Source: Saprospira sp. CCB-QB6
GTDB taxonomy: Bacteria > Bacteroidota > Bacteroidia > Chitinophagales > Saprospiraceae
NCBI RefSeq assembly: GCF_028464065.1
Contig: NZ_CP116808.1
Coordinates: 1,263,886 to 1,327,885 of the forward strand
Length of the DNA stretch: 64,000 nt
Direction: 5' to 3'
A program made the translations under genes and the position numbers. Positions 41,415 to 64,000 of the stretch are shown one piece after another (the stretch's first letter is position 1; every line of letters begins with the position of its first letter). Under the pieces are notes generated by a model that was not told the origin of the DNA, did not search any database, and saw only the letters and a program-made list of their open reading frames with translations.

Positions 41415-41553
41415 AAGGGCCGAAGGCCCGCGGCTGAGGGGCTGTAGCCGTGCCGCCGCAGGCGGCAGACCAAAGCGCTGCAAGCGCCGCAGGGCCGAGC
41501 GAGCAGCGAGCGGCGCAAGGGCACGGCCGCCGCAGGCGGCAGGCCCCAAAAAA
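41415..41553 (-). repeat. GC-rich modular repeat copy O (alpha-prime type, minus orientation), right arm of the pair
   Basis: GGGCCGAAGGCCCGCGGCTGAGGGGCTGTAGCCGTGCCGCCGCAGGCGGCAGACCAAAGCGCTGCAAGCGCCGCAGGGCCGAGCGAGCAGCGAGCGGCGCAAGGGCACGGCCGCCGCAGGCGGCAGGCCCCAAAAAAAG. Confidence 0.8.
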
Positions 41554-50295: not shown

Positions 50296-51093
50296 ATGTC
50301 TGCCATTCCTTTCTATAAATATCAAGCAGCGGGCAACGATTTTGTCATCTTTGATAACCGAGAGGCTAAGCTCTCCTTTTCTGCCCAAGAAATTGCCCGC
50401 ATCTGCCACCGACAGTTTGGCATCGGAGCCGATGGCATTATGCTGCTCGAAACAGCCCCAAAACTAGACTTTAAAATGGTCTACTTTAATGCCGATGGCG
50501 CCCCCAGTAGCATGTGCGGCAATGGCGGAAGAGCCCTGGTCGCCTTTGCTAAGCATTTGGGCCTGTTTGAAAATAGCTGTAGCTTTATGGCCGTGGATGG
50601 CCTCCACCATGCCAAGGTCTTAGGCCCCAATTATATCGCCCTAGAAATGCAGGATTATAAAGATTTATATCTAGCCGACTCTCACTGCTTTTTAGATACA
50701 GGCTCTCCCCATCATATCGAATTTGTCGCCCAATCCGAAGCCATTGATGTGGTCCAAGAAGGCCGAAAAATTCGCTATGCCGCCCCCTATGGAGAAAAAG
50801 GCGCTAATGTCAATTTTGTAGAAGTCCTCAGCCCCACAGAACTACAAATTGCTACCTACGAAAGAGGGGTCGAAAACGAAACTTTGGCCTGCGGCACTGG
50901 CGTTACCGCCGCCGCTATCGCCCACTTTCTACAACATGGCCCAAAAACAAAAGGCCATCACCGCATTGAGGTCCGCGCCAAAGGCGGAGACCTAGCCGTG
51001 GAATTTGACTACCAAGAAGATATTAAAAATATTTGGCTGTTGGGCCCCGCCCAAGCCGTCTTTCAAGGCCAATACTTCGGCCTCCAAAAATAA
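50296..51093 (+). CDS. dapF: Diaminopimelate epimerase
   Basis: The N-terminus FYKYQAAGNDFVIFDN contains the DapF signature GNDF. Catalytic Cys motifs SMCGNGGR and ACGTGVTAAA. 265 aa. Confidence 0.85.
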   Translation: MSAIPFYKYQAAGNDFVIFDNREAKLSFSAQEIARICHRQFGIGADGIMLLETAPKLDFKMVYFNADGAPSSMCGNGGRALVAFAKHLGLFENSCSFMAVDGLHHAKVLGPNYIALEMQDYKDLYLADSHCFLDTGSPHHIEFVAQSEAIDVVQEGRKIRYAAPYGEKGANVNFVEVLSPTELQIATYERGVENETLACGTGVTAAAIAHFLQHGPKTKGHHRIEVRAKGGDLAVEFDYQEDIKNIWLLGPAQAVFQGQYFGLQK

Positions 51094-51102
51094 AAGTGAA
51101 TC

Positions 51103-51459
51103 ATGGGAAAAGATACCAAAAAAGTTGTCCAAGAAAATAATATTCAACTAACCGTTGGCCTCAATGCCGATCGCACCCCCGTCAAAATTGAATGGGAAGC
51201 CTCCGATAGCCAAAACGGCCCCGAAGAATGCAAAGCCATGCTGATCTCACTCTTCGATAAAGCGCATAAAGATACCCTCAAAATTGATCTCTGGACCCTC
51301 GATATGCAGGTCAACGAAATGGACCGCTTTATGTACCAAACCCTACGCGGCCTAGCCGATACTTACTATCGCGCTACCAATAACCAACAACTCAGCAACG
51401 ATTTTATGCGCTTTGTCCAATACTTTGGCGAAAAAACAGAAACCCTACCTAAAAAGTAG
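51103..51459 (+). CDS. Small cytoplasmic protein, possibly gliding-motility-associated GldC-like
   Basis: 118 aa. Size, the hydrophilic KIEWEASDSQNGP...DLWTLDMQVNEMDRFMYQTL pattern and the Bacteroidota context resemble what I recall of GldC. This is a memory-based call, not verified. Confidence 0.3.
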   Translation: MGKDTKKVVQENNIQLTVGLNADRTPVKIEWEASDSQNGPEECKAMLISLFDKAHKDTLKIDLWTLDMQVNEMDRFMYQTLRGLADTYYRATNNQQLSNDFMRFVQYFGEKTETLPKK

Positions 51460-51478
51460 ATCCGAAAGCAAAGCCAAA

Positions 51479-51511
51479 GGCCCAACTCCTTATTGGAGTT
51501 GGGCCTTTTTT
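51479..51511. terminator. Hairpin GGCCCAACTCC-TTATTG-GAGTTGGGCC plus T6, bidirectional terminator
   Basis: Read directly. Lies between the convergent 51103..51459 (+) and 51540..52199 (-). Confidence 0.6.
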
Positions 51512-51539
51512 ATTCCTAACACTTCAAATAAAAGCTAAA

Positions 51540-52199
51540 TTAGGAGGCTATGGCTGTTTGTATGGTAGCATCTATATCTTCTACATACTCTTCAAATACG
51601 GCACTTATTTGTATAACATCTGGAAATGTTAAATCCGAGGCCTGATCATTGTAATGCAGCACTTTATTCCTCTTTAAAACAATACTTTGGATCAAGTCTT
51701 TATGCTGAATATATGAAGAAACCTTATCCAAATCTATCCCCATATAAGAAAATGCTACCTTCGTCCTATCTGGGTTTCCCGAAATGAAATCATCAAAACC
51801 ATTTTCATTTTCTTGTAGCAAGAATATCGCTTCTGCATTTTCCCTTTTTTCTAAATCCTTCGTTGCTTTATTTACAGCTGCTTTAGAAAACTTATTTTCT
51901 TTATCTCTTGATGCAATTACGATAACATTTTTAGGGAGATTTGCATTAGCCACCCTTTGCTGATACTCTTTATATATCTCTGATAAAACGTCTTTCAAAT
52001 AGCTTTCCAAACAAACACAAAGTTGTACTAATGCCGACTTCGTCAGAAAGTTAGCATGTTCTATGACAAACTGCTCAGCTCCTGAGCCACTACTCTGGCC
52101 AAGTTGTACCTTATGGCTGTCATTTACAAAGGTCCTTAAATCATTTAAATTGTCTATATATCTTTTGTAGGATGTTGTTTTTAGGTTACTCATAGCCAT
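51540..52199 (-). CDS. HEPN-like protein (Rx4H motif; MAE_28990/Swt1-like by context), second gene of a DUF262-HEPN module
   Basis: 219 aa, predicted all-helical. C-terminal region IQSIVLKRNKVLHYNDQ gives R-x4-H, the HEPN RNase signature. Overlaps the upstream DUF262 gene by 14 bp. About 35% GC. Confidence 0.45.
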   Translation of the reverse strand: MAMSNLKTTSYKRYIDNLNDLRTFVNDSHKVQLGQSSGSGAEQFVIEHANFLTKSALVQLCVCLESYLKDVLSEIYKEYQQRVANANLPKNVIVIASRDKENKFSKAAVNKATKDLEKRENAEAIFLLQENENGFDDFISGNPDRTKVAFSYMGIDLDKVSSYIQHKDLIQSIVLKRNKVLHYNDQASDLTFPDVIQISAVFEEYVEDIDATIQTAIAS

Positions 52200-53217
52200 C
52201 TATTTCTGAGAGTTTTGAAATCCATAGCTCACGACGTTTTAGGATAGAGCTTTTTTTCTGTGTTCCCCCTGATAGTTTTTGTTGGAACTTAGGCATTTGA
52301 CAAAGCTGATTAAATTTTTCTTGAATTTCCTCCTTATGCGCTAAAGCCCAATCGCGTCTCCCTGTCAAAGACCACATGATTAGGTCATAATGTGCATTAC
52401 TATGTCTAGGCTTCTCTTTGGTTACATCCATAAAAGGTTGTTTAAATACCTGTACACAAGTATCTAAAGTCTCGGTAAAGAGTTTCTTTAACTCTTTAAT
52501 TTTGGTTGCTGAAAGATTCTGATTTTCAGCCATACACTGATCCAACCACTTAGCATGGTTACTATCATAAGTCTTTAAATCCTTTTGTAGGGCGAAGTAC
52601 CGTAAAACTAGCTCTTCATCCCTTCGATCATCCTTATCCTTGGCTAACTGAAAAGCAGGAAGACCCTGATCGGCTAATTCTTTCAGTAGAGAGTCAAAAC
52701 TTCCAGGGTAAATTGCATGTCGAATCTCTTGATCACTCAGCTTAACAGCTCCTTGGTTCAATCGAGCAAAAATCTCATTCACTAGCCCTTTGGGGTTGTT
52801 CTTTCTCAACACCACACAACGAATAGTTGTATTTTCTAAATCTGCCTGATAAGTGCCTAACTCTGAGAACTTCTTATTATTCAATTCTGGATATACAGTC
52901 AATCCTTCTAAAGCAAATTCGTCCGCAAAAAATCGTCGTATAGTAGTAATTCTTTGTACACCGTCAATCACTTCATGGCTTCCATCCTCTCGCTCTGCAA
53001 AATAACAAGCAGGTAAAGGAATACGCATTAAGCAAGATTCGATGAATTTAGAGCTCCGCCCTTCACCATCTTTATCCCATTTGTATTTTCGCTGAAAGTC
53101 GGGATCTAAAATTAGTTTTCCATCTCGGACCCTATCATTTAAAGTCTCAAAAGGATAATCAATAGGATAAAGGTTCAAGACCTTCATATTCTCTTCCGTG
53201 TTTGTATTACTGGCCAT
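52186..53217 (-). CDS. DUF262 (GmrSD N-terminal / ParB-Srx-like NTP-binding) domain protein
   Basis: N-terminal LYPIDYPFETL...LDPDFQRKYKWDKD (QR.YxW box) and EVIDGVQRITTI (DGQQR box), both hallmark DUF262 motifs. No DUF1524/HNH C-terminal domain is recognisable. 343 aa. AT-rich codon usage. Confidence 0.7.
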   Translation of the reverse strand: MASNTNTEENMKVLNLYPIDYPFETLNDRVRDGKLILDPDFQRKYKWDKDGEGRSSKFIESCLMRIPLPACYFAEREDGSHEVIDGVQRITTIRRFFADEFALEGLTVYPELNNKKFSELGTYQADLENTTIRCVVLRKNNPKGLVNEIFARLNQGAVKLSDQEIRHAIYPGSFDSLLKELADQGLPAFQLAKDKDDRRDEELVLRYFALQKDLKTYDSNHAKWLDQCMAENQNLSATKIKELKKLFTETLDTCVQVFKQPFMDVTKEKPRHSNAHYDLIMWSLTGRRDWALAHKEEIQEKFNQLCQMPKFQQKLSGGTQKKSSILKRRELWISKLSEIDGYE

Positions 53218-53264
53218 TAGTTGATGTTTTTATATTTAAACGTATAGCAATATACAAAAAAAAA

Positions 53265-54407
53265 TCATTCCCGCCAATCTTCTACCCGCCAATGTTGGGC
53301 AGGCCGCAAAAGCGGCAGTTCTCTATATATTAAGGTATTGGCCCGCCAAGAAACATCTTGGCCCGCCCACTGCCCAAATAAAAAGAGTTGATCGCTAGTT
53401 TGACGATAATATAAACGAGCCTGAAGGCTATCGCCCTGCAAATCATAAAGGGCAAGTCCATCTTCGGGCAGATAGCGCAGCCGATAACTCTTTTGCCTCC
53501 TCCCCTGCTGCATGATCCAATAGCCCCGACGATGAATATAGAATTCTTGTCCATCTTCTAAGACATAAGCCCCATGCAAAGGCGGCCTAGTCTCCATATC
53601 ATCATTCCAATGCCGCCGATGCCGATAAGGCCAAAGTATATTTAAGCCTATACATAAAAGAACTAGCGTTTTTATCCACCACTTTCGCCCCCCTAAAAAA
53701 GAAGGCCCCAAAGAAGCCCTTGCCGCCAAAGCCTGCCCAGTAGACCAAGCCCAAAGCCCCTTTAATCTGGGCCAAAGAAGATATAAGGCCATCCATAAAA
53801 GCCCAGCCGAATATAGCTTGACGTTGATGTCAAAACTTATATTGATAAGCAAGACCTGCCCCATCACCCCTGCCGCTAACAAAGCCCCTAATGCTCGACT
53901 AGGCCGGTAGAATAATGCTAAAGCCGCCAAGATTTCTACTATACCCGTCCAAAAACTATAGGTCCAAGAACTGCCCATGACCGACCAAAAAGCTAAATCC
54001 TTCTCGATATACCCCAATGGCTGATAAAGGGTGTTGGGCTCTGGCAAAAAGAATTGCTGTTTGAGCAGCTTGTCTAGACCATAACGCCCCAATTGCATCC
54101 CTAAGTAATAGACGATGCCCAATTGCAAATAAGACTGAAACTGCTGACTCCAGTTTTTTTTGTCCCATAACAATAGCAAGGCCGCCAAGACCGCCAACCA
54201 AATACTATGTAAATAAAAGCCCGTACTATCCGAAGCTAAACGATAATAGCCCCCTTCTATCCCCAAAAGCTCCCCACAGGCGCTATAAAAAGGAGCCAAG
54301 CCCTCTGCCCAAAAAGCAGAATATGCAGGACATAAGGGCTGCTCAATCGGAGCCGTTAGGGCAAAGAGAATTAAGTATATAGTTGTCCAACGATAAAGCA
54401 TCTGCAT
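53265..54407 (-). CDS. Polytopic membrane protein, hypothetical (N-terminal 8-9 transmembrane segments, about 120-aa soluble C-terminal domain)
   Basis: Hydrophobic segments throughout residues 1-260. C-terminal Arg/Tyr-rich soluble region. Ends 47 bp upstream of the DUF262 gene on the same strand, so possibly co-transcribed. Confidence 0.45.
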   Translation of the reverse strand: MQMLYRWTTIYLILFALTAPIEQPLCPAYSAFWAEGLAPFYSACGELLGIEGGYYRLASDSTGFYLHSIWLAVLAALLLLWDKKNWSQQFQSYLQLGIVYYLGMQLGRYGLDKLLKQQFFLPEPNTLYQPLGYIEKDLAFWSVMGSSWTYSFWTGIVEILAALALFYRPSRALGALLAAGVMGQVLLINISFDINVKLYSAGLLWMALYLLWPRLKGLWAWSTGQALAARASLGPSFLGGRKWWIKTLVLLCIGLNILWPYRHRRHWNDDMETRPPLHGAYVLEDGQEFYIHRRGYWIMQQGRRQKSYRLRYLPEDGLALYDLQGDSLQARLYYRQTSDQLFLFGQWAGQDVSWRANTLIYRELPLLRPAQHWRVEDWRE

Positions 54408-54428
54408 TTTTTTTAGCTTTTCTATCTA

Positions 54429-54731
54429 ATCCACGGAGTCAATCTGAGATGTCCGTAGACCTCCGTGGCCGCCACGGAGCCAATCTGAGATGTCCGTAGA
54501 CCTCCGTGGCCACCACGGAGCTAATCCGAGATGTCCGTAGACCTCCGTGGCCGCCACGGAGCCAATCTGAGATGTCCGTAGACCTCCGTGGCCACCACGG
54601 AGCCAATCTGAGATGTCCGTAGACCTCCGTGGCCACCACGGAGCTAATCCGAGATGTCCGTAGACCTCCGTGGCCGCCACGGAGCTAATCCGAGATGTCC
54701 GTAGACCTCCGTGGCCACCACGGAGCCAATC
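54429..54731. repeat. 41-bp tandem array of about 7.4 units: ATC(T/C)GAGATGTCCGTAGACCTCCGTGGCC(G/A)CCACGGAGC(C/T)A
   Basis: Each unit has a CTCCGTGG-CC(G/A)-CCACGGAG hairpin (8-bp stem) and an ATCTGAGAT palindrome. Units differ only at 3 positions and there are no spacers. Starts about 22 bp upstream of the start codon of 53265..54407. Confidence 0.85.
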
Positions 54732-54974
54732 CATCCGAATGGTCGCAGTCCGTGGCGGATTCTAAGCCCCTCTTTTGATTTTCCTATGGTCCCCCTAATC
54801 AAAAAATAAAAGGTGCTTAGGCCCTAAAATAAGCGATCCTTTATTTAGAAGGACAAAAAAAGGCTCCAAACTAAGGTTTGGAGCCTTTCTGGGCCATCAA
54901 ATTCTTGAGCATAATAAGCTTGAGCGAGGAATTAGGCCAGCCAATAATAGCGAAAGCGGCAAGAAGGCCCGCAG

Positions 54975-55196
54975 CCCACAACAAGCCCTTTAGGCTGCAG
55001 TTCGACGGCCAGAGGGAGTAACCGATTTGCAGCAGGCGGCGCAGCCGCCTTGGCCGAAGGCCAAACGGCCCAGCGCTGCGGAGGGGTGGCCGTAAGGCCA
55101 GACCAAAGCCGCCGCAGGCGGCTGCAGGGCCGAACAGACCTGTGAGCCCCGCAGCATAGCGGCGGCCAGCTTTGCTGGCCGCGGGCCCCAAAAAAT
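54975..55196 (-). repeat. GC-rich modular repeat copy S (gamma-type, minus orientation), preceded by a GCAGTTCGACG..AGGGAGTAACC module
   Basis: GGCCCAGCGCTGCGGAGGGGTGGCCGTAAGGCCAGACCAAAGCCGCCGCAGGCGGCTGCAGGGCCGAACAGACCTGTGAGCCCCGCAGCATAGCGGCGGCCAGCTTTGCTGGCCGCGGGCCCCAAAAAA. Confidence 0.8.
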
Positions 55197-55231
55197 CGCC
55201 CTTATCCTCGGTCATTTTCTTCAAAAGTGCT

Positions 55232-56734
55232 CTAATTATTGATCAATTGGGCCAGCGGGCTATCTTTTTTGGCAATAAAATCAATAGCCTTGGCTAAATC
55301 TTGGGCAAATACCCGATCGCCCTCAATGGCGGGCACGACTTGACGGAAAGCTTGGCGGCAAGTTTCAATTTGGGGAGAGCTGGGCAAGCTTCTAAACTCT
55401 AGGCTTTGGAGCGCCGCCATCAATTCAATCGCCAAAAGGCGCTCTACATTATGGACCAAGCGATAAAGTTTGGTCCCTGCATTGGCCGCCATACTCACAT
55501 GATCCTCTTGGCCATTACAAGAGACCAAGGAATCTACAGAAGCGGGCGTGCAGAGCTGTTTATTTTGGCTAGCGATAGAGGCCGCCGTATATTGGCCAAT
55601 CATCAGGCCAGAGTGTAGGCCCGAATTGGGCGTAAGGAAAGCGGGCAGGCCTCTTTTTCCGCCAATGAGTTGATAAAGGCGGCGTTCAGAGATACTTCCG
55701 AGTTCGGATAAGGCCATTGCCATAAAATCGAGGACCAAGGCTAGCGGCTGAGCGTGGAAATTTCCGCCTGAAAGGATAGCATCTGTTTCTGGGAAAATAT
55801 TGGGGTTATCCGTTACGCTATTGAGCTCGGTGCTCAGTACAGTTTTGGCATATTGCAGGGCATCTTTACTGGCCCCATGTACCTGAGGCACGCAGCGGAA
55901 AGAGTAAGGATCTTGGACCACCTCTTTTTCCTCCTTCATCAAAGGAGAATCGGTCAATAGGATTCTAATATTTTTGGCCGTTTGTAGTTGGCCATTATGG
56001 GGGCGGATAAGATGAAGGCGCTCATCAAAGGGGCTAAGCAGGCCCCCAAAGCCATCAATAGAAATAGCGGCAATGCTATCGGCCCAAAGGCTGAGCTTTT
56101 CCGCCTTCCAATAACTGTAGATGCCATAGGCCAAAGAAAACTGGGTTCCGTTGAGCAGCGCTAGGCCCTCCTTCATTTCGAGGGCAAGAGGCTGCCAGCC
56201 CAATTTTTCTAGGGCTTGAGCCGAGGACATTCGTTCGCCCTCAAAGTAGACCTCTCCCTCGCCTAAAATAGGGAGCGAAAGATGGGCTAGGGGGGCTAAA
56301 TCGCCAGAGGCTCCTAGGCTTCCCAACTGATAGATAACGGGAATAAGGTTCGCATTATAGCTATCAATTAGGCGTTGGAGCAAGATAGGGCGAACGCCCG
56401 AAAAGCCTTGGGCCAGATTCTGAATTTTGAGGAGCAGCATGAGGCGGGCCAGCTCCTCTGGCACCAAATCGCCTGTACCAAAGGCATGAGAGCGGACCAG
56501 ATTATGTTGTAGTTCGCTTAGGGCCTCCTTGCCAATTTTGACATCGCAAAGCGAGCCAAAGCCCGTATTGATGCCATAAAAAGAGTCTTCTGAATTTGCC
56601 ACTTTTTCCTCTAGAAAATCGCGGCAAGCCTTTACCTTGGTCCAAAGCGACTCACTTAATTCAATTTTTGTATGTTTTGTCCAAATCTGATGCAGGGCAT
56701 CTAATGTTAGTTCCTTATCGGTAAGCAAATGCAT
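55232..56734 (-). CDS. hutH: Histidine ammonia-lyase family (HAL/PAL/TAL; MIO-forming Ala-Ser-Gly present)
   Basis: GSLGASGDLAPLAHL contains the ASG triad that forms the MIO cofactor. 500 aa. Substrate (His vs Tyr/Phe) cannot be decided from what I can read. No hutU/hutI neighbours. Confidence 0.75.
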   Translation of the reverse strand: MHLLTDKELTLDALHQIWTKHTKIELSESLWTKVKACRDFLEEKVANSEDSFYGINTGFGSLCDVKIGKEALSELQHNLVRSHAFGTGDLVPEELARLMLLLKIQNLAQGFSGVRPILLQRLIDSYNANLIPVIYQLGSLGASGDLAPLAHLSLPILGEGEVYFEGERMSSAQALEKLGWQPLALEMKEGLALLNGTQFSLAYGIYSYWKAEKLSLWADSIAAISIDGFGGLLSPFDERLHLIRPHNGQLQTAKNIRILLTDSPLMKEEKEVVQDPYSFRCVPQVHGASKDALQYAKTVLSTELNSVTDNPNIFPETDAILSGGNFHAQPLALVLDFMAMALSELGSISERRLYQLIGGKRGLPAFLTPNSGLHSGLMIGQYTAASIASQNKQLCTPASVDSLVSCNGQEDHVSMAANAGTKLYRLVHNVERLLAIELMAALQSLEFRSLPSSPQIETCRQAFRQVVPAIEGDRVFAQDLAKAIDFIAKKDSPLAQLINN

Positions 56735-56836
56735 AAATTGTTAGCTGTTGTGGCCCATTTGGGCCTATATTAAATGATAATCCTGTCTGATTAGGCCGAA
56801 TATAGAAGAAGAGATTTAGAAAAAAAATAAAGCGAT

Positions 56837-57478
56837 ATGAATAGCTCAAAAAATAAGGTCAAGTTCTTAGCTAGGGCCTACTTTTATCTACTCCCTTGGA
56901 GTCGTCCCAAGCGATTGTGGTTATTGGGGCTGTTGATGCTGCTTATCTTTTGCCGTTTTCAGTACCTAACGGCTAGCTGGCGGGCAGCCTTGGGGCCCTT
57001 GACCTCTGGAGAAGAGCTGCAGTTGCTCGATACTCATTTTGGCATTCGGGAAAAAGAGATAATTCCCTTGCTAGAGCATTTGGGGCCCGCCTATCGACAA
57101 GCGCACAGCTACTTATACATCAGCTTAGATTTGATTTATCCTCTCGTTTATGGGCTATTCTTTTCGGCCTTGCTTCTTTTCCTTTTACAGAACTCCTATC
57201 CCCGTTATTTAGGTAGCCTTTATCGCCTAAGTTTTTTCCCTTTTTTGATCGCAATCACCGACCTTTTAGAAAATATATCTTTTATCTTGTTGCTTTGGCG
57301 CTACCCCCAAATTGATCCCTACTTATGGTGTTTGGCCTCCACATTTAACCAGACAAAATGGATCGGGGTCAATTTACTGCTCATTTTGCTCCTACTGGGC
57401 TTTGTTGCTCGCTGGATGAATCGAGTAGAGGTAGCAGAGTTTCGGGCCATGCAAAAACGCTTTGGCTCGGATAAATAA
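56837..57478 (+). CDS. Hypothetical polytopic membrane protein
   Basis: 213 aa with 5-6 hydrophobic segments. No motif recognised. Confidence 0.45.
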   Translation: MNSSKNKVKFLARAYFYLLPWSRPKRLWLLGLLMLLIFCRFQYLTASWRAALGPLTSGEELQLLDTHFGIREKEIIPLLEHLGPAYRQAHSYLYISLDLIYPLVYGLFFSALLLFLLQNSYPRYLGSLYRLSFFPFLIAITDLLENISFILLLWRYPQIDPYLWCLASTFNQTKWIGVNLLLILLLLGFVARWMNRVEVAEFRAMQKRFGSDK

Positions 57479-57519
57479 TCAGACTCATATCAATCATCAA
57501 GCTTTAAAATTAAATCAAG

Positions 57520-58110
57520 ATGTCTAAGAACTTATTGTGGGATGCCGCATTGGCTCGTTTGAAAGAGGGTAATGATCGCTTTGTTAAAGAACAAACAGAA
57601 GGGAAAAAGCAGGCCTTAAATCGCCGTCAGGAATTAACTAAAGGACAGGCTCCTTGGGCCATTATTTTGAGTTGTGCTGACTCTAGAGTGGTTCCCGAAC
57701 TCACCTTTGATACGGGCTTGGGCGAGCTTTTCGTAATTCGAGTAGCGGGCAATATTGCCAATAAAGCCACCTTGGCTAGTATTGAGTATGCCGTTGCTCA
57801 CTTAGACGTCAACTTGATTGTAGTAATGGGTCATGAAAGCTGCGGGGCGGTCACGGCAGCCATGGCAGAGGGCGATGCGGAAAGTAACAACCTAAAACAT
57901 TTGTTAGATTACATTCAGCCGGCCATTGCCGCTTGTCCCCAGGCTCAAAATGTAAATGAGGTCGTAAAGAAAAATGCCGAGCTTACGGCAGAGGCTTTGG
58001 CGGCCAATTCGGCCATCATTCAGAATGAAATCACGCATGGAGAGCTCAAGGTCTTTTCGGCCTATTACAATCTCTCTGATGGACATGTAGACTTTTTTGA
58101 GGAGGCTTAG
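57520..58110 (+). CDS. Beta-class carbonic anhydrase
   Basis: Zinc ligands in CADSRV (CxDSR) and HESCGAV (HxxCG). 196 aa. Confidence 0.85.
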   Translation: MSKNLLWDAALARLKEGNDRFVKEQTEGKKQALNRRQELTKGQAPWAIILSCADSRVVPELTFDTGLGELFVIRVAGNIANKATLASIEYAVAHLDVNLIVVMGHESCGAVTAAMAEGDAESNNLKHLLDYIQPAIAACPQAQNVNEVVKKNAELTAEALAANSAIIQNEITHGELKVFSAYYNLSDGHVDFFEEA

Positions 58111-58134
58111 GTCAAATTGAAACGGGCAAAAAAA

Positions 58135-58167
58135 ACCGCCAGCTCGACAAAAGCTGGCGTTTTTTTG
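58135..58167 (+). terminator. Rho-independent terminator CGCCAGCT-CGACAAA-AGCTGGCG plus T7
   Basis: Read directly, 25 bp downstream of the carbonic anhydrase stop. Confidence 0.65.
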
Positions 58168-58195
58168 TAGGGGCCAAGAGCTTCCCGATGATGAT

Positions 58196-58325
58196 ATTTT
58201 TTTGGGGCCCGCGGCCAGCAAAGCTGGCCGCCGCTATGCTGCGGGGCTCACAGGTCTGTTCGGCCCTGCAGCCGCCTGCGGCGGCTTTGGTCTGGCCTAC
58301 GGCCCCCCCTCCGCAGCGCTGGGCC
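58196..58325 (+). repeat. GC-rich modular repeat copy T (gamma-type), left arm of a tight inverted pair
   Basis: TTTTTTTGGGGCCCGCGGCCAGCAAAGCTGGCCGCCGCTATGCTGCGGGGCTCACAGGTCTGTTCGGCCCTGCAGCCGCCTGCGGCGGCTTTGGTCTGGCCTACGGCCCCCCCTCCGCAGCGCTGGGCC. Reverse complement of copies A and S. Confidence 0.8.
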
Positions 58326-58479
58326 GCTCCACTTTTTTTGTTGCTTCAAATCTTTAGGCTTCGGCCTTTTGGTCCTCCCTTTTTAGTTCACTTCATGAGG
58401 GGGTTAGCCCTCATTCATATATTATTCTGCAGCAATGCCATTCCTTGCTGTAGGTTTTAACCTACAAGCACAGATAGCA
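58326..58479. repeat. Conserved core between inverted pair T/U (TTCATGAGGGGGTTAGCCCTCATTCATATAT...GCAATGCCATTCCTTGCTGTAGGTTTTAACCTACAAG)
   Basis: Homologous to 41278-41414. Confidence 0.7.
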
Positions 58480-58622
58480 GGCGGCAAAGCCGCCGCAGGC
58501 TGAGGGGCTGTAGCAGGGCCGCCGAAGGCGGCAGACCTAGCGGGCATAGCCCGCGCAGGGCCGAGCAAACAGCGAGCTGCGCAATGGCCCGACCCGACCG
58601 CAGGAAGGGGCAGCCCCAAAAC
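58480..58622 (-). repeat. GC-rich modular repeat copy U (alpha-prime type, minus orientation), right arm of the pair
   Basis: GGCGGCAAAGCCGCCGCAGGCTGAGGGGCTGTAGCAGGGCCGCCGAAGGCGGCAGACCTAGCGGGCATAGCCCGCGCAGGGCCGAGCAAACAGCGAGCTGCGCAATGGCCCGACCCGACCGCAGGAAGGGGCAGCCCCAAAACC. Confidence 0.8.
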
Positions 58623-58628
58623 CTCCAC

Positions 58629-59558
58629 CTAAGACAACTTACTATAATTGGCAGCGGCAGCGCCTTCTTCATGCTTAGCTTCTAGAATTTCAAAGACATT
58701 CTTGCGAATATTATGGGCGATATCGCCCGTAGGCAGGTCATTACAATCCTGGCCAAAGGGGTCTTGAATCTCTGCGGCCATCAGTTCGAGGCCAAGAAAG
58801 GCAAAGAGGATCAGCATCAGCACGGGCAATCCCCAAAAGCCAAAGCTGGGCAAAATCACAAAGGGTAAAATCAGGGCGTAGCAAACAATATAGAGCCGCA
58901 AGAAGATCTCGTAAGAAAAGGGAATAGGGGTTTTCTTAATGCGTTCACAGGCGCCCAAAACATCGAGCAGCGCTTGAGTGTGAGGTTTAAAATTAAGCTG
59001 ATCGAGCTCTCGGATTTCGCCACGGCGATAAGCCTGCACCACTAGCTGCTGAATTTGGGCCGAAATATAGGCGGGTAAATGCTGTTGCTCTGCATAAAGC
59101 TGTCGATCTCTAGCGCTCAACTCAATAAGCTCCTCTAGGCGTACGCCCTCCCGCAAATGCTCCTTAAAGGCCAGGCAAAAATTGCTAATTAATAGCGCTA
59201 GACGGTGGCGGATCGCCTTATTCTCTTCGGGAAAGCAAACCTGTCCCACAATGGCTAGATTTCTACTGTGATTAACCAGCGCGCCCCATTGTTTGCGGCC
59301 CTCCCACCAGCGATCATAGGCTGTATTGGTCCGAAAGACCAAAAGGATACTCAGCACCACCCCCAAAAAGGAAAAAATGCTGCTCAGACCGTCTAATTTT
59401 AGGTATTTGGACCAATCGGCCCAGATGAAAAGGGCCGCCAGTCCTGCCACGGCCAAGCCATAAAACAAAACATAAGCAATCAGCCGTTGAATAACCAGAG
59501 TGCGATTAAAATGGCGAATGTCTCTTAGGAAAGAGCCCGAAGGTTTGTAGATAATCAT
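58629..59558 (-). CDS. Bestrophin-like (UPF0187/YneE) membrane protein, putative anion channel
   Basis: TAYDRWWEGRKQWGALVNHSRNLA matches the bestrophin-family motif aYdRWWEaR..WG.lvN.sRnl. 3-4 transmembrane segments. 309 aa. Confidence 0.6.
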   Translation of the reverse strand: MIIYKPSGSFLRDIRHFNRTLVIQRLIAYVLFYGLAVAGLAALFIWADWSKYLKLDGLSSIFSFLGVVLSILLVFRTNTAYDRWWEGRKQWGALVNHSRNLAIVGQVCFPEENKAIRHRLALLISNFCLAFKEHLREGVRLEELIELSARDRQLYAEQQHLPAYISAQIQQLVVQAYRRGEIRELDQLNFKPHTQALLDVLGACERIKKTPIPFSYEIFLRLYIVCYALILPFVILPSFGFWGLPVLMLILFAFLGLELMAAEIQDPFGQDCNDLPTGDIAHNIRKNVFEILEAKHEEGAAAANYSKLS

Positions 59559-60505
59559 GAGTTAGAGATTAATTGTTCAATCGGCATCGTTCTTCCGCCG
59601 CAAATAATGGCCAAAATATGTTTGGCCGCTCGGATTTCGGGCCAATCTTCCTCTAGGGCAGCACGGACCAAGCCGCAGGCGGGCTCCGTCAGATGCCCTG
59701 TTTCGGTCAAGAGTTGTTGGACGCCCCAAACTGCCCGTTCATCAGGCAAAACACGGCTATATACCTTGGGCGATTGAGCCGCTTCCCAGGCGGCTTGAGC
59801 AATCTTTTTGGCGCCTAAGCTGCTGGCAATCCCCTCAATCTTTGGCAGTTCAATTTGTTCGCCTGCGGCCAAGGACTGATGCAGGGAGGCTGTACCAGGC
59901 GTCTCCAAACACAACACCTTAGTGGGCCAATTATGGGCGGCTAGGCCCTGCATCACCCCTTTAAAAAGACCTCCGCCGCCTACCGAGAGTAAAATGAGAT
60001 CGGGAGGCTGCGGCAATTGCTCCGCCAATTCATTAATCAAACTGCTATGGCCCTCCCAAAGGGCGGGATGATCAAAAGGGGGAACATAGGCCGCTTGGGA
60101 CGCCTTGGCTAATTCTAGGGCCAGTTTTTGGGCCTCGGCCCAGCTTTCGCCAGAGCGATAAACCTTTGCCCCTAAATCGAGGAGCAATTGCTCGACAAAA
60201 AGAGAGCTAGTTAGGGGAAGAACAACCTCTGCTCGCAGTTGGAGTTCTTGGGCGGCATAAGCCACCGCCAGGCCCGCATTACCTCCAGAGGCAATCACCA
60301 AAGATAAAATGCCTTGGGCCTTAAGTTCCTCCGCATAATGGCCAATCCCTCTAATTTTAAAAGAGCCCGAAGCTTGCTGGCAATCTAGTTTATAATAAAT
60401 ATGCTGCCCTTTGCGCTGAGACAAGCCCCATTGCTTTCGGCAGGCCGTTTTTTGATGTAATGGCATGAATTGTTTTTTATTGGGCTTTAATTTAATGAAC
60501 TCCAT
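59555..60505 (-). CDS. PLP-dependent threonine/serine dehydratase-like enzyme (fold-type II)
   Basis: PLP-lysine motif ASGSFKIRG. Gly-rich phosphate loop SGGNAGLAVAYAA. The start codon is uncertain (Met28 or Met41 of the ORF); Met28 is used here. Overlaps the bestrophin gene by 4 bp. Confidence 0.6.
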   Translation of the reverse strand: MEFIKLKPNKKQFMPLHQKTACRKQWGLSQRKGQHIYYKLDCQQASGSFKIRGIGHYAEELKAQGILSLVIASGGNAGLAVAYAAQELQLRAEVVLPLTSSLFVEQLLLDLGAKVYRSGESWAEAQKLALELAKASQAAYVPPFDHPALWEGHSSLINELAEQLPQPPDLILLSVGGGGLFKGVMQGLAAHNWPTKVLCLETPGTASLHQSLAAGEQIELPKIEGIASSLGAKKIAQAAWEAAQSPKVYSRVLPDERAVWGVQQLLTETGHLTEPACGLVRAALEEDWPEIRAAKHILAIICGGRTMPIEQLISNS

Positions 60506-60606
60506 CAAATTCGAGAAAGATAAAAAAGCGGAGGAAATAACTCCATAGCCTATTTTTTCTCGTATTTTAAAAATCGCTTGCCCCAATCACCTTAAACTCT
60601 AGTCCC

Positions 60607-61665
60607 TTGTCTATAAAAATATTATCTACTCATAAAGCTTTGCCTCGCTACTCTAGGTCTACTCAAGACATCCTTCCTTATATTGATCTTTGGTTACAGG
60701 CTAAAGGCCAAGATGAACGCTTTCGCCGCAAGGTGGAGCGTATTTTTCGCTATGCGCAGGTCGACCGTCGCTACTCCATTATGGATATCGAAGAGGTCTT
60801 TCAGCAAACCTCCTTTGAGGAAAAGAATGCCCGTTATGCGGAAGAATATACCTTACTGACGCAGCAAGCCCTAGAAGGGGCCTTAAAAAAGGCCAATTTA
60901 CAGCCTACTGATATTGATATTATCATCAGTGTAAGTTGTACGGGCATTATGATTCCCTCTATAGACGCCTACTTAATTAATGCGCTGAGAATGCGCCAAG
61001 ATATTATGCGTTTGCCCGTAACAGAAATGGGCTGTGCAGGGGGTACCTCCGCATTGATTTATGCTTACAACCTGCTTCAGGCCAATCCAGGTAAACGAGC
61101 GGCCATTGTTGCCTTTGAATCACCTACGGCTACCTTTCAGCAAGATGATATGAGCATGGTAAATATGGTCAGTGCCGCCATCTTTGGCGATGGGGCTGTT
61201 TGTACCATCTTGGGCCCCTCCGAAGAGCTGAAACCCGCTATCATTGCGGGAGAGATGTATCATTTTTATGATGAAATTGATATGATGGGCTTCAAGCTGC
61301 GGAACACGGGCCTACAAATGATCTTGGACAAGGAAGTACCCAACAAAATTGAGCGACATTTTGAGGCCGTTTTGTTTCCCTTTATAGAAAAGCATGGGCT
61401 AAGCATCGAGCAAATCGAGCACTTAATCTTTCATCCCGGCGGCAAGAAGATCGTGCAGCTGGTCGAGAGTCTTTTTGCGGACCTAGACAAAAACATAGCA
61501 GAAACCAAAGAGGTTTTGCGCCTCTATGGCAATATGTCTTCGGCCACGGTGCTCTATGTTTTAGAGCGTTATTTAGAAAAGCCCATTGCCGCTGGCGAAA
61601 AGGGCCTGATGTTGAGTTTTGGTCCAGGGTTTTCTGCCCAACGCCTATTATTGAATTGGGAGTAG
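60607..61665 (+). CDS. Type III polyketide synthase (chalcone/stilbene synthase superfamily)
   Basis: All three catalytic residues are in the expected contexts: Cys in EMGCAGGTSAL (CHS GCFAGGT), His in IFHPGGKKIV (CHS HPGGPAIL), Asn in LYGNMSSATVLYVLE (CHS GNMSSA). 352 aa. Confidence 0.8.
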   Translation: MSIKILSTHKALPRYSRSTQDILPYIDLWLQAKGQDERFRRKVERIFRYAQVDRRYSIMDIEEVFQQTSFEEKNARYAEEYTLLTQQALEGALKKANLQPTDIDIIISVSCTGIMIPSIDAYLINALRMRQDIMRLPVTEMGCAGGTSALIYAYNLLQANPGKRAAIVAFESPTATFQQDDMSMVNMVSAAIFGDGAVCTILGPSEELKPAIIAGEMYHFYDEIDMMGFKLRNTGLQMILDKEVPNKIERHFEAVLFPFIEKHGLSIEQIEHLIFHPGGKKIVQLVESLFADLDKNIAETKEVLRLYGNMSSATVLYVLERYLEKPIAAGEKGLMLSFGPGFSAQRLLLNWE

Positions 61666-61692
61666 TCATTGCCCCGCTAAATCAGAAAGCCG

Positions 61693-62478
61693 ATGTATAA
61701 GGAACAGCAACTTTGGGGGCTCATTTTGGGGGGCTCTTCGGGACTAGGTTGGGCGGCCGCCCAACAACTGGCCCAAAAAGGCATGTCGCTCTGCATTTAT
61801 TATCGAGAACGGCGGGCCGATGCTCGGGTGGCCCAAGCTCGTTTTCAGGCTTTGGCCCTAGAAACGGGCGTGAGTATTTTGCACTATAATGTAGATGCCA
61901 CGCAAAAAGAGCAAATTGCTCGATCTTTGGCAGAACTGGCCAATCGCCTGCCGCCAGAGGCTCGCTTTCGGCTGCTATTGCACAGCATTGCCAAGGGCAA
62001 TCTCAAGGCCTTTTTGGGCCAGAATAATTTGACGAGTACTGATTTCCAGCTTACGGCCCAAAACATGGCTTATAGTATTGTCGATTGGGCGCAGGGATTA
62101 ATTAATCTAGGCCGCTTTGCCGAAGATGCTCGAATTTTGGGGTTGAGCAGTGGGGGAAACCAAAGAGCTTGGTCCCATTATGCGGCCGTGTCAGCGGCTA
62201 AGACCGCTCTAGAGGCCATTATTCGCGCTATGGCTTTAGAGTATGCGCCCTTGGGCATTCGGGCGAATATTGTACAGGCGGGCATGATGAATACCCGTTC
62301 CTTTCAACTGATTCCCGGCAGCGATGATTTGGCCCAATTTGCCAAAAGTAGAAACCCTTTGGGCCGAATGACGGAGGCCGAAGATGTAGCCAAAGTCATT
62401 GAGCTACTCTGTCGAGCAGAATCAGCTTGGATTAATGGTGCCATTATTCCCGTAGATGGCGGAGAACGATTGATTTAA
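61693..62478 (+). CDS. SDR-family reductase, FabI/FabL-like enoyl-ACP reductase
   Basis: NAD(P)-binding LILGGSSGLGWAAA. Active site HYAAVSAAKTALE gives Y-x6-K plus AALE, as in FabI (YNVMGVAKAALE) rather than the classical SDR YxxxK. 261 aa. Confidence 0.6.
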   Translation: MYKEQQLWGLILGGSSGLGWAAAQQLAQKGMSLCIYYRERRADARVAQARFQALALETGVSILHYNVDATQKEQIARSLAELANRLPPEARFRLLLHSIAKGNLKAFLGQNNLTSTDFQLTAQNMAYSIVDWAQGLINLGRFAEDARILGLSSGGNQRAWSHYAAVSAAKTALEAIIRAMALEYAPLGIRANIVQAGMMNTRSFQLIPGSDDLAQFAKSRNPLGRMTEAEDVAKVIELLCRAESAWINGAIIPVDGGERLI

Positions 62479-62484
62479 CAACAG

Positions 62485-62940
62485 ATGAAAGATAACTACC
62501 AAGATATTTTAGCCCTGCTCCCCTATGGCCCTAACTTCTGCTTTGTAGATGAGTTATTGGCGCTGAATAAAGAAGGCGTTATAGGGCAGTACCGCTTTGC
62601 TAAAGAGGCCCCCTTTTATGCCGATCATTTTCCAGAAAACCCAATTACCCCTGGGGTTTTGCTTTTGGAGTGCATGGCGCAGATTGGGCTCGTTTGCCTA
62701 GGCATTTATTTATTGAAAAAAGAGCTGCAGGAGGTCCCACAAATTGCCTTTAGTAGTTCTAAGGTCAATTTTTATCGGCCCCATCGGCCAGGAGAATTGC
62801 TTAGAGTAGAAGCCAAAAAGAAATTATTTCGTCTCCAACAGCTTCGAGTAAATGCCTCTGCCTATAATGAAGCGGGCGAATTGGTTGCCCAAGCCGAATT
62901 GGCGGGCATGTGGAGCAAAAAAACAAAAACAGATGCCTGA
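62485..62940 (+). CDS. FabZ/FabA-like hotdog-fold 3-hydroxyacyl-ACP dehydratase
   Basis: ADHFPENPITPGVLLLECMAQIG matches the FabZ motif HFPgnPimPGVLiiEalAQ. 151 aa. Confidence 0.75.
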   Translation: MKDNYQDILALLPYGPNFCFVDELLALNKEGVIGQYRFAKEAPFYADHFPENPITPGVLLLECMAQIGLVCLGIYLLKKELQEVPQIAFSSSKVNFYRPHRPGELLRVEAKKKLFRLQQLRVNASAYNEAGELVAQAELAGMWSKKTKTDA

Positions 62941-64000
62941 ACATAGAGTCGTGATTACAGGTTTGGGGGTTGTTGCCCCCAATGCCTTGGGATGCAAGGA
63001 TTTTTTGGCTGCTTTGCAGGCGGGCCAATCGGGAATTAGCTATCGCTCGGATTTAGAAGAATTGCAATTTGCTTGTCGTGTGGCAGGCTCCCCCCCTTTA
63101 ACCGAAGAGTATATCAATAGTTATTTGACGCCCCTACAAAGGCGATATATTCAAGGCTCTGGACTTTTGTATGGCTGTTTGGCAGGCCTAGAAGCTTGGC
63201 AGGATGCCGCCTTGCCTATAACCGAAAAGGAAGAAGAGCCCGATTGGGCCGCGGGTTGCATCTTTGGGGGGGGACAATCCAGCATTGAGGTTGTTCGAGA
63301 GGGGATTTATAAAGTAGATGCGGGCAAGGTTCGCCGCATTGGCTCTTCTCTAATCCAACAGACGATGGAGAGCAGCATTAGCGCTTATTTGGGTGGCTTT
63401 TTGGGCCTGGGTAATCAGTTGAGTTCTAATTCGGCGGCTTGCAGCACGGGCAGCGAAGCTATATTAATGGGGTATGAGCGCATTCGGTCGGGACGAGCGG
63501 AGCGAATGTTGGTGGGTAGCTGCAATAGTTCTGGTCCATATATTTGGGCGGGTTTTGATTCTATGCGGGTGCTTTGTCGCAAGTTTAATGAGCATCCAGA
63601 ACAGGCTTCGCGCCCCATGAGCGAGCAGGCCGCGGGCTTTGTGCCTGGCAGCGGCGCTGGCGCTATGGTTTTGGAGAGTTTGGCTTCGGCCCAAGCCCGT
63701 GGCGCTCGCATTTATGCCGAACTAAAGGGGGGACATTTAAATGCGGGCGGACAGCGCCAAGGCGGTAGCATGACGGCCCCTAACATCAAGGCGATAGAGC
63801 GCTGTATTCGCTTGGCCCTAGCTGATGCGGGCATTTCGGCTAGGGAGCTGGATGCTATTTCGGGTCATTTGACGGCCACCATGGGAGATCCCGCTGAAAT
63901 TGGGGCTTGGGTGCGGGCTTTGGGCCGCTCTGCCGATGATTTCCCTAAGATTAATAGCCTAAAGTCATTGATTGGCCATTGTTTGTCGGCAGCGGGAGCG
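62933..64000 (+). CDS. Beta-ketoacyl-ACP synthase (KAS I/II, FabF/FabB-like), 3'-truncated by the window edge
   Basis: ATG at 62933 overlaps the FabZ-like stop by 8 bp. MPEHRVVITGLGVVAPNALG. Active-site Cys in NSAACSTGSEAI. His motifs SGHLTATMGD and KSLIGHCLSAAGA. Not in the ORF track because no stop falls inside the window. Confidence 0.8.
   Translation, partial: MPEHRVVITGLGVVAPNALGCKDFLAALQAGQSGISYRSDLEELQFACRVAGSPPLTEEYINSYLTPLQRRYIQGSGLLYGCLAGLEAWQDAALPITEKEEEPDWAAGCIFGGGQSSIEVVREGIYKVDAGKVRRIGSSLIQQTMESSISAYLGGFLGLGNQLSSNSAACSTGSEAILMGYERIRSGRAERMLVGSCNSSGPYIWAGFDSMRVLCRKFNEHPEQASRPMSEQAAGFVPGSGAGAMVLESLASAQARGARIYAELKGGHLNAGGQRQGGSMTAPNIKAIERCIRLALADAGISARELDAISGHLTATMGDPAEIGAWVRALGRSADDFPKINSLKSLIGHCLSAAGA

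Follow-up and report, generated by a model that had tools for sequence, protein, structure and literature searches.

Bacterial operons in which a type III polyketide synthase (PKS) directs the synthesis of phenolic lipids are already known as a kind of system. The srsABC operon of Streptomyces griseus encodes a type III PKS, a methyltransferase and a flavoprotein hydroxylase, which form alkylresorcinols and alkylquinones for the envelope, and arsABCD of Azotobacter vinelandii reportedly produces the alkylresorcinols and alkylpyrones of the cyst (Funa 2006, Miyanaga 2008). The starter is supplied by a type I fatty acid synthase (FAS) in the Ars system, by an acyl-AMP ligase with an acyl carrier protein (ACP) in Ftp, and by a type I PKS module in Cyl. 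The hierridin operon hidABC of picocyanobacteria is characterized by a triad of flavin adenine dinucleotide (FAD)-dependent oxidoreductase, methyltransferase (MT) and type III PKS, and the same triad is found in a planctomycetal operon whose PKSs, starting from fatty acyl chains, gave pentadecyl- and heptadecyl-resorcinols upon heterologous expression; a lipid/isoprenoid-binding protein gene has been reported beside the planctomycetal operon in 'S. ferox' (PMC10896814, PMC8086630). Among biosynthetic gene clusters (BGCs) of Flavobacteriaceae, type III PKS clusters ranked second after terpenes at 9%, with 10.7% in another survey (PMC7440613, PMC10734526), and such clusters, to which no product has been assigned, have repeatedly been reported with 'no MIBiG match' (PMC9859067, PMC12565237). 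In the literature we found no characterised precedent for a type III PKS that draws on discrete enzymes of type II FAS together with an ACP of its own. Here we analyze a 64,000-nucleotide stretch of Saprospira sp. CCB-QB6 (NZ_CP116808.1, positions 1,263,886 to 1,327,885; "the window" hereafter means this whole stretch), at whose right end a type III PKS gene is followed by genes for an enoyl reductase (ER), a dehydratase (DH) and a beta-ketoacyl synthase (KAS). An earlier note on this DNA had taken these genes for the start of a biosynthetic locus continuing beyond the window, and had offered an ammonia-lyase encoded upstream as a possible starter supplier for a flexirubin-type pigment.

A four-gene operon headed by a type III PKS

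The features of the locus are listed below in window coordinates.

58111..58628, no strand: repeat-filled GC-rich spacer, left-edge marker of the bestrophin-PALP-PKS-ER-DH-KAS block, outside the pathway
60467..60606, no strand: divergent AT-rich intergenic region, presumed operon promoter region between the PALP gene (minus strand) and the PKS gene
60607..61665, plus strand: type III PKS, 352 aa, TTG start, with Pfam CHS N and C domains
61033-61035, 61432-61434 and 61531-61533, plus strand: PKS catalytic codons Cys143, His276 and Asn309
61693..62478, plus strand: FabL/FabI-type short-chain dehydrogenase/reductase (SDR), putative NADPH enoyl-thioester reductase, 261 aa, adh_short_C2
62179-62181 and 62200-62202, plus strand: SDR catalytic codons Tyr163 and Lys170
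62485..62940, plus strand: FabZ-like hotdog dehydratase, 151 aa, Pfam FabA-like domain
62626-62628 and 62668-62670, plus strand: dehydratase catalytic codons His48 and Glu62
62933..64000, running beyond the window end, plus strand: KAS I/II-type beta-ketoacyl synthase, first 356 of a predicted 427 codons
63440-63442, 63866-63868 and 63977-63979, plus strand: KAS catalytic codons Cys170, His312 and His349

According to the list of open reading frames (ORFs) and the sequence, 27 bp separate the PKS and SDR genes and 6 bp the SDR and hotdog genes, and the hotdog and KAS genes overlap by 8 bp (ATGCCTGA). This tight spacing together with the overlap indicates that the four co-directional genes form one operon. 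The four-gene set of the earlier note was recovered ORF by ORF, coordinates included and with catalytic residues intact, and the 6-28-bp gaps or overlaps it gave agree with those measured. GenBank already annotates proteins of the locus (WCL82470-72) as type III PKS, FabI and FabZ-family.

The PKS matched Pfam Chal_sti_synt_C with 73 bits and Chal_sti_synt_N with 68.7 bits (gathering score 27), and its Cys143, His276 and Asn309, which align to the triad of Mycobacterium tuberculosis Pks11, are invariant in 89 family members. By phmmer, Pks11 was also its best match in the PDB (165 bits), followed by a Streptomyces tetrahydroxynaphthalene synthase (THNS) and the cyanobacterial CylI. When its AlphaFold (AF2) model (predicted local distance difference test, pLDDT, 85.8; predicted template modelling score, pTM, 0.88) was submitted to Foldseek, the top matches were CylI (template modelling score, TM, 0.90-0.91) and Pks11 (TM 0.92), and all 50 matches listed were type III PKSs with TM values of 0.85-0.92, which points to a thiolase-type fold. 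The protein also scored on FabH profiles (ACP_syn_III_C 52.5 bits, fabH 61-72 bits). By its domains, triad and predicted fold, the product of 60607-61665 is a type III PKS, in agreement with the chalcone-synthase-family enzyme with a Cys-His-Asn triad described earlier. Its TTG start codon (60607-60609) yields the N-terminus MSIKIL..., compared with the homologue consensus MxxKIL, and is probably correct because the N-terminus aligns with the start of the homologues.

The SDR gave 152.7 bits with adh_short_C2. FabL was its best NCBIfam model (133 bits, under the cut-off of 328), FabI models gave 71-78 bits against cut-offs of 299-477, and its best PDB match was FabL of Bacillus subtilis (3oic, E=1.6e-23), with which the motif Y163AAVSAAK170 (Tyr-x6-Lys), invariant in 54 homologues, is aligned. 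Tyr-x6-Lys belongs to enoyl reductases of the FabI/FabL type and Tyr-x3-Lys to ketoreductases. In the hotdog protein, the Pfam FabA-like domain (47.6 bits) contains the FabZ motif H48FPxxPxxPGV...E62, whose His48 and Glu62 are invariant in 84 homologues; its best PDB matches were FabZ-type dehydratases, it reached 67.6 bits with TIGR01750 fabZ (cut-off 155.15) and stayed under the other fabZ cut-off of 113, and weak ApeI/ApeP-like Pfam matches were found among precomputed results. The KAS fragment in the window was fabF-like (214 bits), and the full-length Saprospira grandis orthologue gave 255 bits with fabF, whose cut-off is 493.75. The best PDB matches of the KAS were a Brucella KAS I-like enzyme, FabF and FabB, and its Cys-His-His triad (Cys170/His312/His349) is invariant in 80 homologues. 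Since KAS, DH and ER fall far under the FabF, FabZ and FabI equivalog cut-offs and are syntenic with the PKS, they constitute a dedicated set rather than housekeeping FAS-II. The assignments made before (an enoyl-reductase-like SDR with Y-x6-K, a hotdog dehydratase and a KAS II-like ketosynthase) therefore stand, and the private elongation set that had been proposed, as opposed to ordinary housekeeping FAS-II, is favored by the sub-cut-off scores, by a synteny with the PKS that extends over the phylum and by the ACP and phosphopantetheinyl transferase (PPTase) that usually belong to the set.

Between the window and S. grandis, the ratio of nonsynonymous to synonymous substitution rates (dN/dS) was lowest in the PKS gene (0.033), followed by those of the ER (0.035), the KAS (0.046) and the DH (0.052), with dS in the range 0.7-1.2. 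These ratios lie in the same range as those of the neighboring carbonic anhydrase, HutH and bestrophin genes, and they indicate that all four Saprospira cassette genes are under strong purifying selection, which on this evidence speaks for a Saprospira version that is still functional.

Upstream of the operon, the PALP (Ser/Thr dehydratase-like) ORF 59555-60586 is listed as 343 aa with a TTG start and is probably over-extended. Because its relatives are called at 301-303 aa, its start was placed at the ATG at 60466, which leaves a 140-bp divergent promoter region presumably common to PALP and PKS. No Rfam family was found in 54-64 kb, including the PKS/PALP intergenic region, and a sigma-70 promoter and terminator scan gave nothing above shuffles, with a sigma-70 model that is ill-suited to Bacteroidota promoters.

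The Saprospira operon ends with the KAS gene

The order PKS-ER-DH-KAS was found in seven Saprospira-type loci (the window, L002, L006-L008, L093 and L094). An eighth Saprospira locus, L095, carries the same four genes on a contig that ends just upstream of the PKS, and the fragment L001 spans 2.3 kb. In the two complete S. grandis genomes (L006, L007), identity to the window is 96% for the PKS, 95% for the ER, 88% for the DH and 95% for the KAS, and the metagenomic contig L093 is collinear with window positions 50738-63999 at 86.6% nucleotide identity. The four-gene arrangement is thus kept in at least three Saprospira lineages, the PKSs of L002 and S. grandis being 95-96% identical at the protein level to that of the window.

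The full-length KAS has 427 aa in L093, and 427-428 aa across S. grandis (L006, L007) and L093. From this length, about 71 codons are missing from the window and the stop codon is predicted near 64216, about 216 nt past its end. In S. grandis, the roughly 700 bp that lie 3' of the KAS consist of GC-rich interspersed repeats, in which no ACP-like or other plausible ORF was found; an LRR protein, a carbonic anhydrase, a membrane protein and the ammonia-lyase are encoded beyond this repeat spacer. Five independent metagenomic contigs (L002, L008, L093, L094 and L095) end 3-34 nt after the KAS stop codon, as expected if a repeat sits there. Two hairpins 3' of the S. grandis KAS are suggestive.

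The block bestrophin-PALP-PKS-ER-DH-KAS (58629-64000 in the window, 7589-14173 in L006) has opposite orientations in CCB-QB6 and S. grandis. As revealed by blastn, an inverted pair of 188-bp repeats (97.9% identical) at 7589-7775 and ~13986-14173 brackets the block in S. grandis L006, which suggests a repeat-mediated inversion. The edges of the inverted block delimit the cassette, which accordingly ends with the KAS, and a trigger-factor gene is predicted to come next in CCB-QB6.

By tblastn, cassette-type ACP, PPTase, methyltransferase and FAD-oxidoreductase queries had no match in the 64-kb window and none in the Saprospira loci, and neither a methyltransferase nor an FAD oxidoreductase was present within the window or the 21-kb S. 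grandis loci. Pfam searches of the other large ORFs in the window gave no biosynthetic genes. A weak ACP-like match at 17524-17637 (E=0.09) was dismissed, as it falls inside a 2450-aa protein secreted by the type IX secretion system (T9SS). Judged from S. grandis and L093, the locus is a complete operon of four genes rather than the beginning of a larger locus. The expected continuation beyond the window is not supported: in L006, L007 and L093 the operon ends at a KAS of 427-428 aa, and none of the genes anticipated downstream (ACP, acyl-AMP ligase, methyltransferase or dar genes) follows the KAS.

A type III PKS cassette shared across Bacteroidota

In a profile-guided scan that took a single genome from each species, at least 595 species genomes gave a match, and the loci from the best 80 were compared, giving about 89 loci altogether. 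All of these best 80 genomes are Bacteroidota, with representatives of Flavobacteriaceae, Chitinophaga, Schleiferiaceae/Cryomorphaceae, Saprospiraceae/Lewinella and Sphingobacteriales. Close relatives of the PKS number thousands, the best 120 being 64-95% identical and, where named, from Bacteroidota. The PKS of the window is 64-78% identical to members of the cassette family, of which 18 diverse sequences share 120 invariant alignment columns, and PKSs of Saprospiria, Chitinophagia and Flavobacteriia are 64-68% identical to each other.

When reference proteins were mapped onto the loci, a canonical co-directional cassette emerged that consists of an FAD-dependent oxidoreductase, an S-adenosylmethionine (SAM)-dependent methyltransferase, the PKS, an optional ER, the DH, the KAS, an ACP and a PPTase. 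Among the ~89 loci, 31 have the order FAD-MT-PKS-DH-KAS-ACP-PPT, 25 the same order plus the ER, and 12 contain the ER without the PPTase; the FAD oxidoreductase and the methyltransferase accompany the PKS in at least 80 of the ~89, in other genera. Similarity links the FAD protein to flavoenzymes of the geranylgeranyl-reductase and UbiH types, and the methyltransferase to UbiG/UbiE-like enzymes. The ACP (84 aa) is divergent but real (PP-binding 22 bits), with an invariant L-x-I-N-S-A-x-L-V-D around the serine. All catalytic residues of PKS, ER, DH and KAS are invariant across 54-89 members.

The recurrence of the order PKS-ER-DH-KAS, in six other Saprospira loci and in mid-cassette in 80 Bacteroidota genomes, is far beyond chance, and by synteny the window locus almost certainly belongs to this cassette. 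Among the lineages sampled in the ~89 loci, only Saprospira has PKS-ER-DH-KAS without FAD oxidoreductase, methyltransferase, ACP and PPTase at the locus; in gene content, the window operon is a reduced Saprospira form which keeps only the middle of the cassette, itself conserved across aerobic Bacteroidota. As read from the loci compared, the cassette is modular and combines a triad like that of hid and srs with two optional parts, the SDR and a DH-KAS-ACP-PPT module.

Three further genes adjoin the cassette in Flavobacteriaceae: one for a YceI-like lipid/polyisoprenoid-binding protein in 22 loci, one for a GreA-like protein of 153 aa in 35 loci and one for a DAO-type FAD oxidoreductase in 32 loci. 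Examples are the stretch 5856-8011 in L054, with equivalent positions in 22-35 Flavobacteriaceae loci, and sites after the PPTase in L053 and L063-L065; the YceI-like and GreA-like genes occur at either end. The DAO-type, GreA-like and YceI-like genes probably belong to one functional unit with the cassette; they are absent from Saprospira. A bestrophin-family channel gene lies divergently beside the cassette in the window (58629-59558, minus strand) and likewise in Chitinophaga pinensis (L005, 7107-8024; 30% identical), but no bestrophin was found within 9 kb of the PKS in the other sampled loci, including those of three other Chitinophaga, so that the shared position may be a coincidence. 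A PALP gene beside the cassette occurs only in Saprospira among the sampled loci. We do not claim a functional link of the cassette to the PALP and bestrophin genes.

In some Flavobacteriaceae, an ORF of ~190 aa is inserted between the PKS or ER and the DH (L039, 11085-11669; L030, 12038-12598), and similar gaps within the cassette were seen in L049, L064, L076, L077 and L084. Its identification as a replacement reductase was rejected, since its HUH-like motif (NHFHLL) gives it the look of a REP-associated tyrosine transposase by sequence. The insertion appears not to disrupt the flanking cassette genes.

Proposed product and biosynthetic route

The best-supported mechanism, which we regard as fairly probable from gene content and from analogy with described pathways, is that a private type II elongation module feeds the type III PKS. 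The KAS would take a fatty acyl chain from primary metabolism and extend it with malonyl-ACP. Because the cassette encodes no ketoreductase (KR), housekeeping FabG is invoked for reduction of the keto group, and FabD would likewise be borrowed; the dedicated DH and ER would then complete the elongation cycle. The type III PKS may be primed by the long-chain acyl (or beta-ketoacyl) thioester so formed, and would add two or three malonyl-CoA units and cyclize the chain to an alkylresorcinol or an alkylpyrone. In most Bacteroidota, the ring would subsequently be hydroxylated and methylated, as in the hierridin and Srs pathways, and Saprospira would either make the untailored lipid by means of housekeeping AcpP or acyl-CoA, or rely on partner genes located elsewhere in the genome. 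Our best guess for the product, made by analogy, is a long-chain alkylresorcinol or alkylpyrone acting as a membrane-active phenolic lipid, since the closest systems are hidABC, the planctomycetal operon and srsABC and the closest structures are CylI and Pks11, both of which take long aliphatic starters. The YceI-like neighbor of the cassette in 22 Flavobacteriaceae loci is in line with a lipid product. The alkylresorcinol/alkylpyrone logic of the earlier note is, on the product side by analogy, the best available model.

Several observations weigh against this mechanism. The ER is absent from about 40% of the cassettes in other genera. In addition, the nearest relatives of the PKS outside Saprospira (73-78% identical; L003, L089 and L090) are found in the arrangement MT-PKS-SDR, with an FAD gene upstream as well in L090. 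No DH, KAS or ACP gene stands beside the SDR in L003 and L090, where a convergent transporter gene comes after the SDR in L090; L089 breaks off right after the SDR and is uninformative on this point. PKS-SDR pairs without DH, KAS and ACP imply that the SDR may not be an ER of fatty acid elongation and that the elongation module is dispensable. Furthermore, enzymes for ketoreduction, acyl transfer and starter loading are not encoded in the cassette, and the pathway would therefore have to borrow several steps. Neither the choice between resorcinol and pyrone nor the chain length or the nature of the starter can be read from the sequence here, and the literature provided no characterised product for any cassette member, only antiSMASH statements of the type 'T3PKS, no MIBiG match'. 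Finally, the DNA of CCB-QB6 was read only to position 64000, and the end of its operon is predicted from S. grandis and L093.

A broader proposal, which we hold tentatively and rate as rather unlikely, is that the cassette represents a phylum-wide, strongly constrained pathway and not a strain-specific antibiotic cluster, in which a type III PKS is fed by discrete type II fatty acid enzymes having an ACP of their own, with a physiological membrane phenolic lipid as its product. UbiH-like hydroxylation and UbiG/UbiE-like methylation would then give a methoxy-alkyl-(hydro)quinone, handled by the YceI-like lipid carriers. If this were true, aerobic Bacteroidota, which otherwise have menaquinone only, would possess a polyketide-derived quinone or antioxidant, and Saprospira would be a natural 'tailoring-minus, ACP-minus' experiment on which parts are essential.

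Alternative explanations

The elongation module feeding a type III PKS was weighed against four rivals. According to the first, which we judge improbable, the operon is a dedicated type II FAS in which the 'PKS' is a FabH-like initiating condensing enzyme, and it produces an unusual fatty acid instead of an aromatic polyketide. The full cassette does cover all FAS-II roles (KAS III-like, KAS I/II, DH, ER, ACP, PPTase) except those of the KR and the malonyl/acetyl transferase (MAT), and the ACP_syn_III_C and fabH scores of the PKS go in the same direction. However, CHS-family profiles outscored FabH profiles, and the best sequence and structure neighbors were all genuine type III PKSs (Pks11, CylI, THNS and Steely1). 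The FAD-oxidoreductase and methyltransferase correspond to the two enzymes that tailor the ring in the hid, srs and planctomycetal alkylresorcinol operons, and at least one variant (L090) is wholly devoid of KAS, DH and ACP.

There is precedent in the platensimycin and kalimantacin clusters, where FabF or FabI duplicates confer self-resistance, for a second alternative in which the FAS-II-like genes are target duplicates protecting against an inhibitor of fatty acid synthesis made by the PKS. Indeed, three FAS-II targets (KAS, DH and ER) are duplicated beside the PKS, all of them divergent from the housekeeping equivalogs. Nevertheless, most genomes carry a private ACP and PPTase, which fit biosynthesis rather than resistance, and the ER is often absent while DH, KAS and ACP stay together; to our knowledge, no such inhibitor is known among the type III PKS products of this operon type. 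We consider this explanation very unlikely.

Equally hard to sustain is the view that the Saprospira cassette is a decaying, non-functional remnant without tailoring genes, ACP and PPTase. Saprospira stands alone among the ~89 loci in lacking these genes beside the PKS, and the block is inverted and flanked by recombinogenic repeats. By contrast, the four ORFs are intact with every catalytic residue, dN/dS is 0.03-0.05 at dS of ~0.7-1.2, no higher than in housekeeping genes nearby, and three or more Saprospira lineages, 86-96% identical to the window, maintain the four-gene arrangement.

The least credible rival makes the operon the start or a fragment of a pigment cluster (flexirubin, aryl-polyene or dialkylresorcinol) in which the lyase encoded upstream, as a tyrosine or phenylalanine ammonia-lyase (TAL or PAL), would supply the aryl starter. 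In its favor are the frequency of flexirubin clusters in Bacteroidota, the weak ApeI/ApeP-like matches of the hotdog protein and the lyase 4 kb away, but at the level of family membership it is already refuted by the profile scores and residues below.

The lyase concerned is the following.

55232-56734, minus strand: lyase with a 4-methylidene-imidazole-5-one (MIO) group, Pfam Lyase_aromatic 606 bits

The MIO-type lyase named by the earlier note is thus present, but not as the TAL or PAL that was to supply a starter. It passed the hutH model TIGR01225 (597.1 bits, cut-off 539.15) and PRK09367 (624 against 524), reached only 324 bits with FlxA (cut-off 700) and passed no NCBIfam model for TAL, PAL or aminomutase. 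It contains the MIO residues Ala142-Ser143-Gly144 and the pair Ser82-His83. We take a Ser-His selectivity pair to denote a histidine ammonia-lyase (HAL), His-Leu a TAL and Phe-Leu a PAL (presumably after Watts 2006 and Louie 2006), so that the selectivity-residue alignment proposed earlier returned the HAL type and not the TAL or PAL pair. The lyase gene lies on the strand opposite to the PKS gene and is separated from it by four unrelated genes, for a membrane protein, a carbonic anhydrase, a bestrophin and PALP, and by the repeat spacer. In S. grandis it is located on the other side of the cassette, and none of the 80 cassette loci from outside Saprospira contains it. By sequence and context, the product of 55232-56734 is a HutH-type histidine ammonia-lyase without a conserved link to the cassette. 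With regard to the pigment families, the PKS gave 20.4 bits with DarB (NF053539, cut-off 550) and 19.7 with the StlD/DarB family (cut-off 450), and the SDR gave 70.7 with FlxB (cut-off 340). No genes for a CoA ligase, a second ketosynthase/chain-length factor, an ACP, an exporter or an acyltransferase were found in the window or in S. grandis, and at 52-64 kb no ORF had an unexplained assignment that would fit DarA, for which no model was run.

Repeats and other genes in the window

Interspersed GC-rich repeats (57-59% GC) of ~130 bp occupy many intergenic spacers, with at least 15 copies in the 64 kb; they are also present in S. grandis. The sites are as follows.

58111-58628, 55066-55195, 41179-41551, 10580-10699, 23779-23901, 32359-32481, 184-320 and others, both strands: interspersed repeats

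One inverted pair of 130 bp (55066-55195 and 58198-58326, 98.5% identical) brackets the segment of HutH, membrane protein and carbonic anhydrase. In the spacer beside the HutH gene, a 41-bp tandem repeat (54431-54731) comprises 7.3 copies with 95% match and the consensus CCACGGAGCCAATCTGAGATGTCCGTAGACCTCCGTGGCCA. This array, to which the repetitive 'DWLRGGHGGLRTS' pseudo-ORFs of the ORF list are due, is found in a longer form in S. grandis Lewin (L007, ~18400-19134).

At 51516-53267, two minus-strand ORFs (51540-52199 and 52186-53217) overlap by 14 bp and encode a GmrSD_N/DUF262 protein (PADLOC NsnA, 256 bits) and a RiboL-PSP HEPN protein. As the pair is inserted relative to the otherwise collinear L093, it is probably a small anti-phage defence islet. 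The only recognisable domain of the 2450-aa ORF (16375-23730, minus strand) is a C-terminal T9SS sorting signal (Por_Secre_tail); a T9SS cargo with fn3 and MAM domains (41613-44846) and PD40/OmpA proteins are encoded near it. GC skew is strongly negative at 20-30 kb of the window.

Comparison with known systems

Co-transcription of PKS, SAM methyltransferase and FAD oxidoreductase in the hidABC and planctomycetal operons has its counterpart in the triad of the canonical Bacteroidota cassette, and the YceI-like genes that adjoin the cassette in Flavobacteriaceae recall the lipid/isoprenoid-binding gene next to the 'S. ferox' operon. The order differs, being FAD-MT-PKS in the cassette and MT-FAD-PKS in the hid and planctomycetal operons. 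The cassette adds DH, KAS, ACP and PPTase, with or without ER, none of which is mentioned for those operons in the two reports as searched here (PMC8086630, PMC10896814). The Saprospira locus in the window has no hid-type methyltransferase or oxidoreductase, and likeness to hid is one of gene content.

The triad of srsABC also resembles that of the canonical cassette. The srs operon contains no KAS, DH, ER or ACP and the Saprospira locus is its reverse, with elongation enzymes and no tailoring enzymes. The likeness to ars is that private fatty acid machinery hands long-chain acyl starters directly to type III PKSs. However, ars relies on a pair of PKSs and on ArsA and ArsD, which are multidomain type I FAS proteins, whereas here discrete type II enzymes (KAS, DH, ER and, elsewhere, ACP) accompany a single PKS, and no multidomain type I FAS was found in the window or the related loci.

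With respect to the PKS itself, CylI (PDB 8ysp, 8yst, 8yw7) is the closest structural neighbor (TM 0.90-0.91), although at 24-25% identity. CylI forms a resorcinol from a beta-ketoacyl chain that an upstream ketosynthase makes and that reaches this type III PKS bound to an ACP, and it is a plausible template for a transfer from KAS, with ACP, to PKS; CylH is a type I PKS module, and the fatty-acid-activating enzyme and the halogenase of the Cyl pathway are absent here. Pks11 of M. tuberculosis (PDB 4jao) is the best-matching solved structure by sequence (165 bits, 29% identity, TM 0.92). With 353 aa it is collinear with the 352-aa PKS, and it is an alkylpyrone synthase primed by long-chain acyl groups in a different genomic context.

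Against this background, the comparison defines a conserved architecture, FAD-MT-PKS-[ER]-DH-KAS-ACP-PPT, often with YceI-like neighbors and with modules that are naturally dispensable. No earlier case would then exist of stand-alone type II FAS enzymes working for a type III PKS. The instance in the window is, by its gene content, a trimmed copy of this type II FAS-served cassette. For the window, this means that the short operon is complete and belongs to a BGC type that is common yet orphan, and the idea of a pigment primed by a TAL is dropped.

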